A stretch of 4,692 bases of DNA, from IMG/VR virus record IMGVR_UViG_2778261344_000007, positions 1-4,692 of that record, one strand, 5' to 3'. Below the pieces are notes generated by a model. That model was not told the origin of the DNA. It was given only the letters and a program-made list of their open reading frames with translations, and ran no database searches. Both the position numbers and the translations under genes were made by a program. Shown piece after piece: positions 2,134 through 4,692 of the stretch; position 1 is the first letter of the stretch, and each line of letters begins with the position of its first letter. The DNA is from a virus. Lineage: Duplodnaviria; Heunggongvirae; Uroviricota; Caudoviricetes.

Positions 2134-2922
2134 TTACCCCCTGAAGCCTGGCGGGATCGCACTGTCCGGAAACGAGACGGTGTTAATCTGTCGGAGCAAC
2201 GTCTCTGGCCGAACACCTTTCGGCGCGAACAAGCCCTGGTATTCATTGGCGATGCTGTGTCGAATCACCTGCTCAGGTGAAAAACCCTGCTGGCGGAATT
2301 TTTCCAGCTCCCGTATCGCCCCGTTAGCGCCCTGCTCCGTTCGAATCGGTTTTCGCAATGCCTGCCTGAACTGAACCCACTCATGCCAGAGTGTTTCCGG
2401 CAACCAGTCAGGCAGCTCGATAGCCTCCGGTTCGAATTTTTTAGACGCTCGTTTTTGGCGAGGGGGATTTAGGGGGAGATAAGTATTTATATCTTCCTCT
2501 TTCTCTTCCTCTGGTAACGCTTTTTGATCCGTTTTTGTAACGCTGGCAGCGTTACCTTTTCGTTTCAGTTCTCGTATTTTTGTTACTCTCTCGTTTGTAA
2601 CCGCCCGTTTTTTAGAGCTTTTCCCGTTATGGCGCTCAAAGTTAGGAAGCGACAACACACCATTAGTTTCGACCAGCCATCCAACCTGAATTAACGCATC
2701 AGCAAAACCAGCCATAAAAGTGATGCGATCTATTGCACTTTTTGTAACGCCGCGAGCGTTACACTCTGCGTTACCGTCTATCATTTGTTGATCCGCCCAT
2801 GCCCAGAAGCGAATGACTTTCCCTAATGCGGCATCTGGATCAATATTCAGAATCTCAGCAAGCCTGAATATTTCCGGCTTATCCGGCGTAATAACTTCGA
2901 GCTTTATCCAGTTTGAAGCCAT
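2134..2922 (-). CDS. ydaU: putative replication initiation protein, YdaU family (lambda O analogue by position)
   Basis: 262-aa ORF, ATG 2920-2922 with AGGTGA about 7 nt upstream. Two-domain layout with a charged low-complexity linker (KSSKKRAVTNERVTKIRELKRKG...EEEKEED) whose coding DNA carries the palindrome/T-tract cluster. Lies directly upstream of the DnaC-like gene. Symbol assigned by synteny and length class, not by search. Confidence 0.8.
   Translation of the reverse strand: MASNWIKLEVITPDKPEIFRLAEILNIDPDAALGKVIRFWAWADQQMIDGNAECNARGVTKSAIDRITFMAGFADALIQVGWLVETNGVLSLPNFERHNGKSSKKRAVTNERVTKIRELKRKGNAASVTKTDQKALPEEEKEEDINTYLPLNPPRQKRASKKFEPEAIELPDWLPETLWHEWVQFRQALRKPIRTEQGANGAIRELEKFRQQGFSPEQVIRHSIANEYQGLFAPKGVRPETLLRQINTVSFPDSAIPPGFRG
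2514..2622. other. candidate replication origin: cluster of GTAAC/GTTAC half-sites with T-tracts inside the ydaU linker-coding DNA
   Basis: GTAAC at 2514, 2537 and 2597, GTTAC at 2551 and 2582; T4-T6 runs at 2521, 2532, 2557, 2577, 2608 and 2619. Just upstream lie GGGGGATTTAGGGGGAG (2462-2478) and an AT-rich/polypyrimidine stretch (2479-2510). Confidence 0.35.
2536..2556. repeat. palindrome copy 1: TGTAACGC-TGGCA-GCGTTAC (inside ydaU, codons 123-130 GNAASVTK)
   Basis: Arms of 8 bp read directly; the reverse complement matches. Confidence 0.85.
2743..2763. repeat. palindrome copy 2: TGTAACGC-CGCGA-GCGTTACA (inside ydaU, codons 54-61 CNARGVTK)
   Basis: Perfect 8-bp arms, 5-bp centre, read directly. 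Confidence 0.85.
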
Positions 2923-2999: not shown

Positions 3000-3422
3000 T
3001 CAATGCACTACGACAGAATCGCTAGGAGAACCGCCGCCGCTGAAATGTGCTTTACGGTAAACGGCCTGGACTGCATCATCATGCGCATCAATTGCCGTAC
3101 TCAGTGCATCCTGTGCCGCCAGTAATGCACGGCGTTCCAGGGTATCGAAGATGCAGAGTCGGTGACGCAGCTCGCGAGGAAGAATTGCCAGAACCGCAGG
3201 GATCAGTTTCTGAATTTTTTCCCTTTGCGCATTCGTTTCACCTTTCAACCAACGATGATAGATATTCTGCTGATTGTTCCAGTCCTTGCCTGGTACCAGG
3301 GGCAATTCGCCGCCCCCCTGGCGCAGATATTCTTCAGTAATTGCGTTAGCGACCCACGCCTGCCCTTTTTCGGCTGCCAGGGCTAACAACACTGATTCGA
3401 TGTGCTCATGCTTGATTTTCAT
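3000..3422 (-). CDS. ydaT: YdaT-family protein (CII-like regulator of Rac-type prophages; historically annotated as a toxin)
   Basis: 140-aa ORF beginning MKIKHEHIESV..., which I recognise from memory as YdaT of the E. coli Rac prophage (unverified). ATG 3420-3422 overlaps the ydaS TGA 3419-3421 (ATGA coupling); GGGAG lies 7-8 nt upstream. Confidence 0.88.
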   Translation of the reverse strand: MKIKHEHIESVLLALAAEKGQAWVANAITEEYLRQGGGELPLVPGKDWNNQQNIYHRWLKGETNAQREKIQKLIPAVLAILPRELRHRLCIFDTLERRALLAAQDALSTAIDAHDDAVQAVYRKAHFSGGGSPSDSVVVH

Positions 3423-3429
3423 GAATCAA
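3412..3429. promoter_or_regulatory. perfect inverted repeat TTGATT-N6-AATCAA centred on the ydaS stop / ydaT start overlap
   Basis: TTGATT 3412-3417, ttcatg 3418-3423, AATCAA 3424-3429, read directly. A weaker relative (ACGATT-N6-AATCAA, 2986-3003) overlaps the ydaT stop. Confidence 0.4.
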
Positions 3430-3673
3430 CTCCCATCAGCTTTTTCGTAGTAGTTTTATTTCTGCCAATAGTTAAAATTGCATCGGCAGAAAATAATCCG
3501 TTTGATGCATGAGCGATTTTTTCAGCGTAATTTGTTTCGCCGGTATATTCTGTGCGAGGCAATTTACCGTTATCCATCCATTTGTAGATTGCTCTTTGGC
3601 TGACACCACAAACGTCGGCCACAACAGAAACGCGAACAGTTTTGATTACATCTTCAAGTGTTTTCTGGTTCAT
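3419..3673 (-). CDS. ydaS: Cro-like small HTH regulator (YdaS-like), 84 aa
   Basis: ORF-track frame 3419..3745; start placed at ATG 3671-3673 (MNQKTLEDV...) because GAGGGTGA lies 5 nt upstream, whereas the ATG at 3745 has no RBS and sits inside the repressor promoter. HTH-like segment VADVCGVSQRAIYKWMDNGKLP. First gene of the operon, divergent from the repressor. Symbol by synteny. Confidence 0.75.
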   Translation of the reverse strand: MNQKTLEDVIKTVRVSVVADVCGVSQRAIYKWMDNGKLPRTEYTGETNYAEKIAHASNGLFSADAILTIGRNKTTTKKLMGVDS

Positions 3674-3697
3674 ATCACCCTCACAATGTGAACTTTG

Positions 3698-3732
3698 AGT
3701 ACATGCTATAACAGAACTGACAGTACATTCAA
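3698..3732 (-). promoter_or_regulatory. candidate early-right promoter (PR-like) for the ydaS operon: -35 TTGAAT (plus 3727-3732), 16-bp spacer, extended -10 TGtTATAGC (plus 3705-3713)
   Basis: Read on the minus strand; would give a leader of about 25 nt containing the ydaS RBS. The -10 is imperfect (ends in C). Confidence 0.4.
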
Positions 3733-3753
3733 GAGCGAATATCATTGAACTTA
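3717..3753 (+). promoter_or_regulatory. candidate repressor-maintenance promoter (PRM-like): -35 CTGACA 3717-3722, 17-bp spacer, -10 TATCAT 3740-3745; predicted start at or beside the racR ATG (leaderless mRNA)
   Basis: Hexamers and spacing read directly; the -10 ends 7 nt before the ATG at 3753 and no RBS is present. Lambda cI mRNA from PRM is leaderless (established), which gives a precedent. Confidence 0.45.
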
Positions 3754-4172
3754 TGGTTCATGAAGATAAAGCGCGTAAAGAGTTCGCCAGTAGGCTTGCG
3801 CTAGCCTGTGAAAACGCTGGTTATGAACAACATGGAAGGCAGGCAGAAATTGCCCGTCGAATGAAATTAACACCAAAAGCGGTTAGCAAATGGTTTAATG
3901 GTGAAACAATTCCTCGCCGAGAGAAATTAAGGGAATTAGCAACACTCATTGGAACAACACCAACCTATCTTTTGGGAGAGGATACAGAAGAAAGTGGACA
4001 GATACGTTTCTATCAGGAGTTAAATCCAAGACAAAAAATCATCATTGACCTTCTGGACGAGCTCCCTGACAGTGAGACAGATGAACTTTTAAAAACTCTT
4101 GAGGAGAAAAAACAGAAGTACAATGCAATTTACGAAGAGTTAGCACGAAAGAAAAAACAAAAAGCCTCTTAA
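3753..4172 (+). CDS. racR: CI-like prophage repressor, XRE-family HTH with a charged helical C-terminus (RacR-like), 139 aa
   Basis: ORF with HTH segment QAEIARRMKLTPKAVSKWFNGETIPRREKLRELATLIG, divergent from the cro-like gene. No Shine-Dalgarno precedes the ATG at 3753, but a good -10 ends 7 nt upstream. Symbol is positional (racR-ydaS-ydaT-ydaU-ydaV order). My memory of K-12 RacR length differs, so this may be a variant repressor. Confidence 0.8.
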   Translation: MVHEDKARKEFASRLALACENAGYEQHGRQAEIARRMKLTPKAVSKWFNGETIPRREKLRELATLIGTTPTYLLGEDTEESGQIRFYQELNPRQKIIIDLLDELPDSETDELLKTLEEKKQKYNAIYEELARKKKQKAS

Positions 4173-4182
4173 ACCAGCATAA

Positions 4183-4220
4183 ATCCGGTAGCGTCCCCCT
4201 CCGGGTTTGTGCTTCACTTT
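4183..4220 (+). terminator. weak candidate terminator after racR: stem ATCCGG / CCGGGT (4183-4188 and 4201-4206, one G-U pair), 12-nt loop, then T-rich TTGTGCTTCACTTT
   Basis: Hairpin begins 11 nt after the racR stop. The stem is short, the loop long and the T-run interrupted, so this is weak. Confidence 0.25.
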
Positions 4221-4247
4221 ATCCCGTCTCATTTTTTTATACATAAA

Positions 4248-4291
4248 ATGTACTTAAAGTACTTTACAATGATGAACACAAAGTACATTAT
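4248..4291 (+). promoter_or_regulatory. operator/promoter cluster downstream of the repressor (OL/PL-like): inverted site 4248-4262 containing palindrome GTACTTAAAGTAC, direct site GAACACAAAGTACAT 4274-4288, candidate -35 TTTACA 4263-4268 and -10 CATTAT 4286-4291
   Basis: Motif copies read directly. Hexamers are moderate matches with a 17-bp spacer, oriented toward the small ORFs at 4464 onward. Confidence 0.4.
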
Positions 4292-4463
4292 ATACCTACC
4301 AACCCACCCCGCCCCACAGAACGCCGGGCAATACTTCGAGTTACCAGGCAGTGGTCAGGGGTTAAGTAGCCAGCCCGAGGCGTATGAACATGACGGCGGG
4401 ATTCAAATTTTGCAGTGCAGCAGTTAGTTCCGCCACCCGGCGTTAAGGGGAAATGAGGTCAAC

Positions 4464-4616
4464 ATGGATACTATCGATCTTGGCAACAACGAATCTCTGG
4501 TATGTGGCGTGTTTCCCAATCAGGACGGCACATTCACCGCCATGACGTATACCAAAAGCAAATCGTTTAAAACCGAAGCTGGCGCGCATCGCTGGTTAGC
4601 AAGAAACTCCGACTAA
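4464..4616 (+). CDS. small early-left protein, 50 aa (MDTIDLGNNESLVCGVFPNQDGTFTAMTYTKSKSFKTEAGAHRWLARNSD)
   Basis: ATG 4464-4466 with GAGG (4455-4458) 5 nt upstream; below the ORF-track size cutoff. Position corresponds to the small ydaG/ydaF genes next to racR in Rac, but I cannot say which. Confidence 0.6.
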   Translation: MDTIDLGNNESLVCGVFPNQDGTFTAMTYTKSKSFKTEAGAHRWLARNSD

Positions 4617-4627
4617 TGAGGTTGACG

Positions 4628-4692
4628 ATGGAATTTAAAGATTTACCTCCTTCAATCCAGGAGATTGCAGCACACACACTTCGTCATCGTCT
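4628..4692 (+). CDS. small protein, N-terminal 21 codons (MEFKDLPPSIQEIAAHTLRHR...), continues past the window end
   Basis: ATG 4628-4630 with GAGG (4618-4621) 6 nt upstream, starting 11 nt after the previous stop; frame open to the window end. Confidence 0.5.
   Translation, partial: MEFKDLPPSIQEIAAHTLRHR

Follow-up and report, generated by a model that had tools for sequence, protein, structure and literature searches.

Does the DNA that follows the repressor gene of this prophage carry a second set of operators around a promoter of its own, so that one repressor controls two regions as OR and OL are controlled in lambda? The original prediction had proposed this arrangement. The window, that is, the whole stretch of 4,692 bases analysed here, was 100% identical to a Rac-like prophage located beside ttcA in E. 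coli 2013C-3277 and in many other strains, and comparison of its sequence with characterised phages indicates that positions 4248–4298 are very probably the OL–PL region of a Rac/Qin-like lambdoid prophage that has the same operator specificity as phage HK022. The window carries, on the plus strand, a gene for a 139-aa repressor (3753–4172; HTH_3, E 1.8e-9) followed by a ydfA-like gene (DUF1391, 4464–4616), while the minus strand carries, leftwards from 3673, the cro-like gene, a YdaT/CII-like gene, an O-like gene, a DnaC-like gene and genes with DUF1627 and DUF977. At least 80% of the stretch 3400–4692 was present in 1023 of 5426 complete E. coli genomes (about 19%), Shiga-toxin-producing strains included, and the immunity region, in which the repressor and cro genes are intact, was 100% identical across many genomes. 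The immunity module was also found, with 94.9–99.9% identity, in deposited E. coli phage genomes (Tritos and the vB_EcoS-666R9 group) so that it is not restricted to this prophage. The module is also contained in a 4.83-Mb record labelled E. coli DH5alpha (NZ_CM135829.1, 826781–827834, hit H39, 99.9% identity); K-12 MG1655 matches the ydfA part only, and the record may represent an extra prophage or a mislabelled strain.

The motif on which the proposal was based could be defined more precisely. The 15-mer GAACACAAAGTACAT is present at 4274–4288, and it is shared with 3690–3704 and 3714–3728, but as the gapped pattern GAAC-N5-GTACAT and not over all 15 bases as had been supposed, since the five central bases differ between the copies. 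GAAC-N5-GTACAT occurs exactly at 3690, 3714 and 4274, and 11 matches were found in the window against 3.3 expected when two mismatches were allowed. Of the symmetric core GWAC-N5-GTWC the window contains five copies (starts 3690, 3714, 3747, 4250 and 4274) against 0.17 expected, a count reached by none of 200 shuffled sequences, and all five sites lie in the two intergenic regions flanking the repressor gene: three between the divergent cro-like and repressor genes and two 76–116 bp past the repressor stop codon (4170–4172). Two copies had been noted at the divergent promoters and both are there; the third, at 3747, had been missed. The 13-bp palindrome GTACTTAAAGTAC at 4250–4262 proved to be perfect (6+1+6), exactly where it had been placed, and within 19.3 kb of the identical prophage the same five sites are the only matches to the symmetric core. 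The full operator is a 17-bp near-palindrome with the consensus ATGWAC-N5-GTWCAT, and OR1–OR2 and OL2–OL1 share a centre-to-centre distance of 24 bp.

The three sites between the divergent genes form an OR-like region. OR1 (GTGAACTTTGAGTACAT, 3688–3704), the operator closest to cro, is an exact motif match that aligns with the HK022 OR operator beside cro; OR2 (CAGAACTGACAGTACAT, 3712–3728), also an exact match, is centred 24 bp from it; and OR3 (TTGAACTTATGGTTCAT, 3745–3761), a match to GWAC-N5-GTWC that shares 16 identical nt with OR3 of HK022, is centred on the ATG of the repressor gene. A PRM-like promoter for the repressor (CTGACA-17-TATCAT, 3717–3745, plus strand) scored 10/12 in the promoter scan, and its −10 hexamer is homologous in position to the PM −10 of HK022 marked in the supplement of PMC8053113. 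The repressor ATG follows the TATCAT hexamer by 8 nt, which makes it probable that the repressor mRNA, like that of HK022 and of lambda, is leaderless. The probable PR-like promoter of cro (minus strand, 3703–3732; TTGAAT at 3732–3727, an 18-nt spacer and TAGCAT at 3708–3703) was recognised by inspection of the sequence and of its alignment with HK022 OR; at 8/12 it falls below the threshold of the scan, and the assignment is therefore of low confidence. The divergent gene itself (3419–3673, minus strand, 84 aa) encodes a protein 62% identical to HK022 Cro over 73 aa (E 5e-34), with a weak match to HTH_17 and a match to PHROG 35 (transcriptional repressor).

Downstream of the repressor gene, OL2 (ATGTACTTAAAGTACTT, 4248–4264) begins 76 bp after the stop codon; it matches GWAC-N5-GTWC and is homologous to ATGTACTATTGGTACTT of HK022. 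OL1 (ATGAACACAAAGTACAT, 4272–4288) is an exact motif match, homologous to ATGAACTTTAAGTACAT of HK022. The promoter scan called a PL-like promoter on the plus strand at 4263–4291, directed away from the repressor gene, with a −35 hexamer TTTACA (4263–4268), a 17-nt spacer and a −10 hexamer CATTAT (4286–4291) that together match the consensus at 9 of 12 positions. A rightward promoter bracketed by the two motif copies had been predicted; a promoter-like site is there, but the operators overlap its hexamers and do not merely flank them: the last two bases of OL2 overlap the −35, and OL1 overlaps the first three bases of the −10. By analogy with HK022, transcription would start at about A4298, 7 nt after the −10, a position equivalent to the +1 of HK022 PL, which is the seventh base after the −10 as deduced from the numbering of putL (PMC9378689).

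When the region was compared with the DNA between cI and nun of HK022, 49 of 61 nt of the OL/PL segment were identical (E 6e-8; HK022 ATAAAATGTACTATTGGTACTTTACATTAATGAACTTTAAGTACATCAT, window ATAAAATGTACTTAAAGTACTTTACAATGATGAACACAAAGTACATTAT). The OR regions of the two were 75% identical over 253 nt (E 5e-24), with the three operators in the same places. In HK022, OL and OR control divergent lytic operons, and CI binds to neighbouring operators with cooperativity and joins OL and OR in a loop (PMC8053113). The HK022 PL promoter (TTTACA-17-CATCAT) is transcribed in vitro by E. coli sigma-70 holoenzyme from a fragment that starts within OL2 (PMC9378689 and scaffold table). In both systems the half-sites are ATGWAC/GTWCAT, the operator centres lie 24 bp apart, and a −35 TTTACA is separated by 17 nt from a −10 at the corresponding position; OR3 covers the repressor start codon, the CI DNA-binding domains and the Cro proteins are homologous, and the immunity DNA stops at the transcription start, which in the window is a predicted one. 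They differ in that HK022 CI has a self-cleaving S24 domain where the window repressor has a DicA-type two-helix tail, and in that the HK022 transcript opens with the antiterminator RNA putL, whereas that of the window would open with a different conserved leader of ~155 nt; the genes downstream are nun, cIII, kil and erf in HK022 but Rac/Qin-like in the prophage of the window (ydfA, kil, recET). HK022 also possesses an OL3 and an operator downstream of cro, for which no counterpart was detected in the window: no third OL site was found within two mismatches in 4143–4247 and no far-right operator within two mismatches in 3000–3680, the same pattern recovering the HK022 operator downstream of cro but not locating OL3 in HK022 itself, which makes the OL3 half of this comparison weak.

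The conservation of the region among relatives follows the operators and the promoter. Sixteen distinct relatives were selected by the hairpin described below and a leader 15-mer, with no operator criterion, and this gave the same result as an earlier regex selection that had forced the half-sites. Invariant among them were AATGTAC, G.ACTTTACA, TGAAC, AAGTAC and T.ATAT, while variation was seen at all five centre bases of OL2, at three of the five of OL1, between the −35 and OL1 and over most of the upstream flank. The left half-site of OL2 was invariant and the right one varied in one of six columns, and the invariant TGAAC and AAGTAC belong to OL1; the −35 TTTACA was invariant, and conservation of the promoter hexamers equalled that of the half-sites. 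A second lineage, that of the phages with putL, has this layout too, in 14 variants whose spacers have diverged further. In OR, 23 distinct sequences from the HK022 and window lineages showed the same pattern, with invariant OR1 half-sites and GAACTGA.AGTACA invariant in OR2. Conserved half-sites around free centres are as expected for operators of a dimeric helix-turn-helix protein, and, as read from these alignments, invariant half-sites with variable spacers indicate continuing constraint.

The right-hand end of the immunity-specific DNA coincides with the predicted transcription start. Megablast matches from heteroimmune prophages begin at query positions 884–915, which correspond to 4283–4314 of the window, and 118 viral-contig loci share the leader that follows, with at least 12 unrelated cassettes directly upstream of it, each with its own repressor. 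Every heteroimmune cassette consists of an operator, a −35 and an operator over the −10, and repeats the motifs of its own divergent promoter region. The mosaic junction can accordingly be placed at A4298, so that, as far as the comparison of cassettes goes, immunity-specific DNA ends at the predicted +1; this is expected if the DNA upstream of +1 is the target of the repressor and the DNA downstream is shared cargo. In the viral contigs with putL (L127–L198) the arrangement is likewise modular: many unrelated operator/promoter cassettes, HK022-type ones among them, adjoin putL, and the join lies a few bases before its 5′ end.

The predicted transcribed leader extends over 4298–4463 on the plus strand, and its first ~155 nt (4298–4451) constitute a module common to many immunity types, 86–100% conserved behind the at least 12 unrelated cassettes and placed before different first genes. 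Fifteen of its first 22 nt are C and one is G. Its fold signal is weak (z −1.4, not significantly more stable than shuffles); the predicted long-range pairing CGCCGGG/CCCGGCG is not maintained in relatives, among which no covariation was seen, and the reading frame of a short upstream ORF is not preserved. Neither a second copy of the leader in the prophage nor an Rfam match anywhere in the window at E ≤ 1, leader included, was found; Rfam holds no put family and gave no match for the put region of HK022. A put-like antiterminator was also considered and rejected: an nhmmer sequence profile built from 29 of 36 put variants collected from viral contigs gave no hit in the window at E ≤ 100 with the filters switched off, so that the resemblance of the leader to putR seen by eye is attributed to chance, and pairwise blastn of the leader against put (conserved core GGATGA...CAATG) returned short chance words only. 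The leader may act as a Rho-utilisation site or as a read-through element.

The PL-like promoter is followed by genes of an early-left type. The first is the ydfA-like gene (4464–4616, plus strand, 50 aa; Pfam DUF1391, E 2.9e-29), and in the identical prophage the order from the promoter is DUF1391, a hypothetical gene, a partial dicB, kil, ydaE, recE, recT, ralR, xisR and intR, all co-directional except one small gene. The predicted promoter heads an operon of lambdoid content (recombination, kil, xis, int), and the scan called no terminator-like site between the predicted +1 and the first gene. The identical prophage has a truncated dicB and frameshifts in recE and intR (L001, 11537–11620, 12490–15617 and 17437–18671); the element is therefore probably cryptic, its immunity region being intact nonetheless, and the operon under the PL-like promoter is partly decayed.

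On its other side, the OL region is separated from the repressor gene by a conserved hairpin. A weak hairpin had been noted at 4183–4206; the hairpin is real, but it extends over 4176–4213 (plus strand) and is not weak, with a dG of −19.4 kcal/mol and a z of −4.8, a stability that none of 200 shuffles equalled. In the 16 relatives the stem is kept while the loop varies, with one U.G pair replaced by U-A. Its U-tract is imperfect (UUCACUUU, with no clean U-run), and the terminator scan made no call at the site; at the equivalent position HK022 has a canonical terminator, and the hairpin of the window probably terminates the repressor transcript ahead of the PL-like promoter.

The repressor itself resembles different proteins along its length. 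BLASTP aligned it with HK022 CI at E 3e-31 (46% identity over 99 aa), its N-terminal domain matched at E 1e-31, and a 94%-identical repressor from L007 shares 59% identity with HK022 CI over 75 aa. Between the window repressor and HK022 CI the recognition helix, TPKA(V/I)SKWFNGE, has hardly changed (TPKAVSKWFNGE vs TPKAISKWFNGE). Residues 1–75 are HK022-CI-like, while the last ~50 aa resemble those of the L004 repressor and of DicA, the match to DicA (E 5e-14) including the C-terminal domain; no Pfam match to an S24 self-cleavage domain was found in the 139 aa. An AlphaFold model (pLDDT 81.5) comprised a five-helix HTH (2–74), a disordered linker (77–89) and two helices (92–138). A fold search with this model returned generic XRE-type helix-turn-helix matches and weak whole-length matches (E 0.02–0.03) to SinR-like and antirepressor-controlled phage repressors, which are suggestive only. 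Going by these alignments, the repressor is a domain chimera of an HK022-CI-type DNA-binding domain and a DicA-type two-helix tail of ~50 aa. In the database the HK022-CI-type DNA-binding domain occurs in both architectures, that is, in short forms and in S24-peptidase fusions of 235–240 aa. The DicA-type tail is, at much higher identity, common to a heteroimmune 139-aa repressor with an unrelated DNA-binding domain, and the two domains appear to have been exchanged independently in this prophage family. The lack of an S24 domain makes RecA-stimulated self-cleavage unlikely as the route of induction; induction may instead proceed, by analogy with DicA, via an antirepressor or a stochastic flip of the switch. 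Because the C-terminal domain differs from that of HK022 CI, cooperativity and looping are not simply transferable from one protein to the other. The recognition helix and the half-sites are nearly identical to those of HK022, and on that basis we predict cross-immunity with HK022.

In its function the region is closest to the dicA–dicC region of Qin. In K-12, the Qin promoter dicBp lies at the equivalent position; DicA represses it 22-fold, an effect that the antirepressor Rem relieves (PMC10448788). Like the window, Qin has a short repressor that is not cleavable and whose C-terminal domain is of the same type, a divergent cro-like gene and, between the repressor gene and ydfA, a promoter for cell-division inhibitors that is repressed in Qin and predicted to be so in the window; it differs in its DNA-binding domain and in its operators, which are of the TGTTAG type (Oc is TTGTTAGTCATAACTAACAA; PMC3441716) and unrelated to ATGWAC-N5-GTWCAT, and K-12 Qin is without most of the conserved leader. 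Lambda has in common with the window operators on both sides of the repressor gene that overlap outward early promoters, and a left promoter that drives recombination genes, kil, xis and int. Its three tandem OL operators, its unrelated operator sequence and its S24-type CI have no equivalent in the window, nor do its OL–OR distance of about 2.3 kb and its N/nutL antitermination. The lambda-like OL/PL arrangement originally predicted is supported, because HK022 homology, the conservation pattern, the junction at +1 and the early-left operon agree, but its closest model is HK022 and, functionally, dicBp, rather than lambda. Taken on homology, the cluster is the counterpart of the characterised OL/PL of HK022, in a Qin/Rac-like prophage with a short DicA-type repressor.

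Other explanations for the cluster were weighed against this reading. The OL sites could serve mainly as a distal partner for OR, with looping over ~550 bp tightening the repression of PR or tuning the repressor promoter while the hexamers contribute little transcription. The looping of OL to OR by HK022 CI (PMC8053113), an OL–OR distance here of ~500–590 bp, near the ~700 bp of HK022, and PL-like hexamers that match the consensus at only 9 of 12 positions speak for such a role. We nevertheless regard it as unlikely, as the hexamers are conserved as much as the half-sites, the homologous HK022 promoter is active in vitro (PMC9378689), every heteroimmune cassette carries a −35/−10 pair at this place, and a long co-directional operon without another obvious promoter follows; moreover, looping and promoter occlusion are not mutually exclusive.

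That the cluster is a decayed relic of a cryptic prophage, an operator/promoter look-alike that is no longer bound or used, is very unlikely. The frameshifts in recE and intR and the partial dicB of the identical prophage would fit such decay, but the repressor and cro reading frames are undamaged, many genomes carry the region at 100% identity, it is covered to at least 80% in the 1023 of 5426 complete E. coli genomes, it occurs at 99.9% identity in complete phage genomes, and the invariant half-sites with variable spacers argue for continuing constraint; in K-12, the repressor of the equivalent cryptic prophage is required to silence toxic genes downstream (PMC10448788). A chance origin of the motif copies downstream of the repressor gene, for which the AT-richness of this intergenic DNA and the background returned by the two-mismatch search (11 found, 3.3 expected) could be adduced, is so improbable that it may be set aside: it was already refuted by the statistics of the symmetric core (five against 0.17 expected, 0 of 200 shuffles) and by homology, with an HK022 OL alignment at E 6e-8 and half-sites kept in 16 plus 14 variants from two lineages.

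For the preferred reading, an OL/PL region of HK022 specificity, we infer the following mode of action. In the lysogen, dimers of the 139-aa repressor would occupy OL1 and OL2, together with OR1–OR3 some 500–590 bp away, possibly with cooperativity and OL–OR looping, and the bound repressor would exclude RNA polymerase from the PL-like promoter. The ydfA-like gene, the cell-division inhibitors, kil, recET and xis/int would be silenced as a result, and the conserved hairpin would keep the repressor transcript from running into the promoter. After derepression, the Cro-like protein would probably use the same operators. Such a switch would prevent the expression of toxic genes of the prophage (cell-division inhibitors, kil) and of its excision functions. 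The cluster is an ordinary, otherwise textbook part of a lambda-like immunity switch, and it is the domain swap of the repressor, the predicted HK022 cross-immunity and the conserved leader that merit follow-up. HK022-type operators predict cross-immunity with HK022-family phages at large, combined here with a repressor that is predicted to be SOS-insensitive, and the two repressors, alike in operators and DNA-binding domain but not in the domain for oligomerisation or induction, would form a natural domain-swap pair in which the evolution of cooperativity and of the mode of induction could be studied.

A more tentative proposal, which we put forward as a possibility, is that the whole recognition module of HK022 (DNA-binding domain, Cro and the five operators) was moved onto a DicA-type, non-self-cleaving scaffold and that the leader is a new cis-acting RNA element. 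If so, a prophage so common that about one in five complete E. coli genomes contains it would provide HK022-type immunity yet be blind to SOS. The helical tail of ~50 aa would then have to supply the pairwise cooperativity, and perhaps the OL–OR looping, for which the S24 domain is responsible in HK022, and the leader, located in the place of putL and starting exactly at the predicted transcription start, would govern read-through or Rho-dependent silencing of the early-left operon.

A further set of repeats was noticed elsewhere in the window. Three perfect 19-bp palindromes, GTAACGC-N5-GCGTTAC, are located at 2537–2555, 2744–2762 and 2936–2954 (none expected), with starts 207 and 192 bp apart; one YdaT paper that was checked offered no explanation for them. 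Two lie inside the O-like replication gene (2134–2922, minus strand) and one just upstream of its start, and they may represent origin or regulator binding sites.
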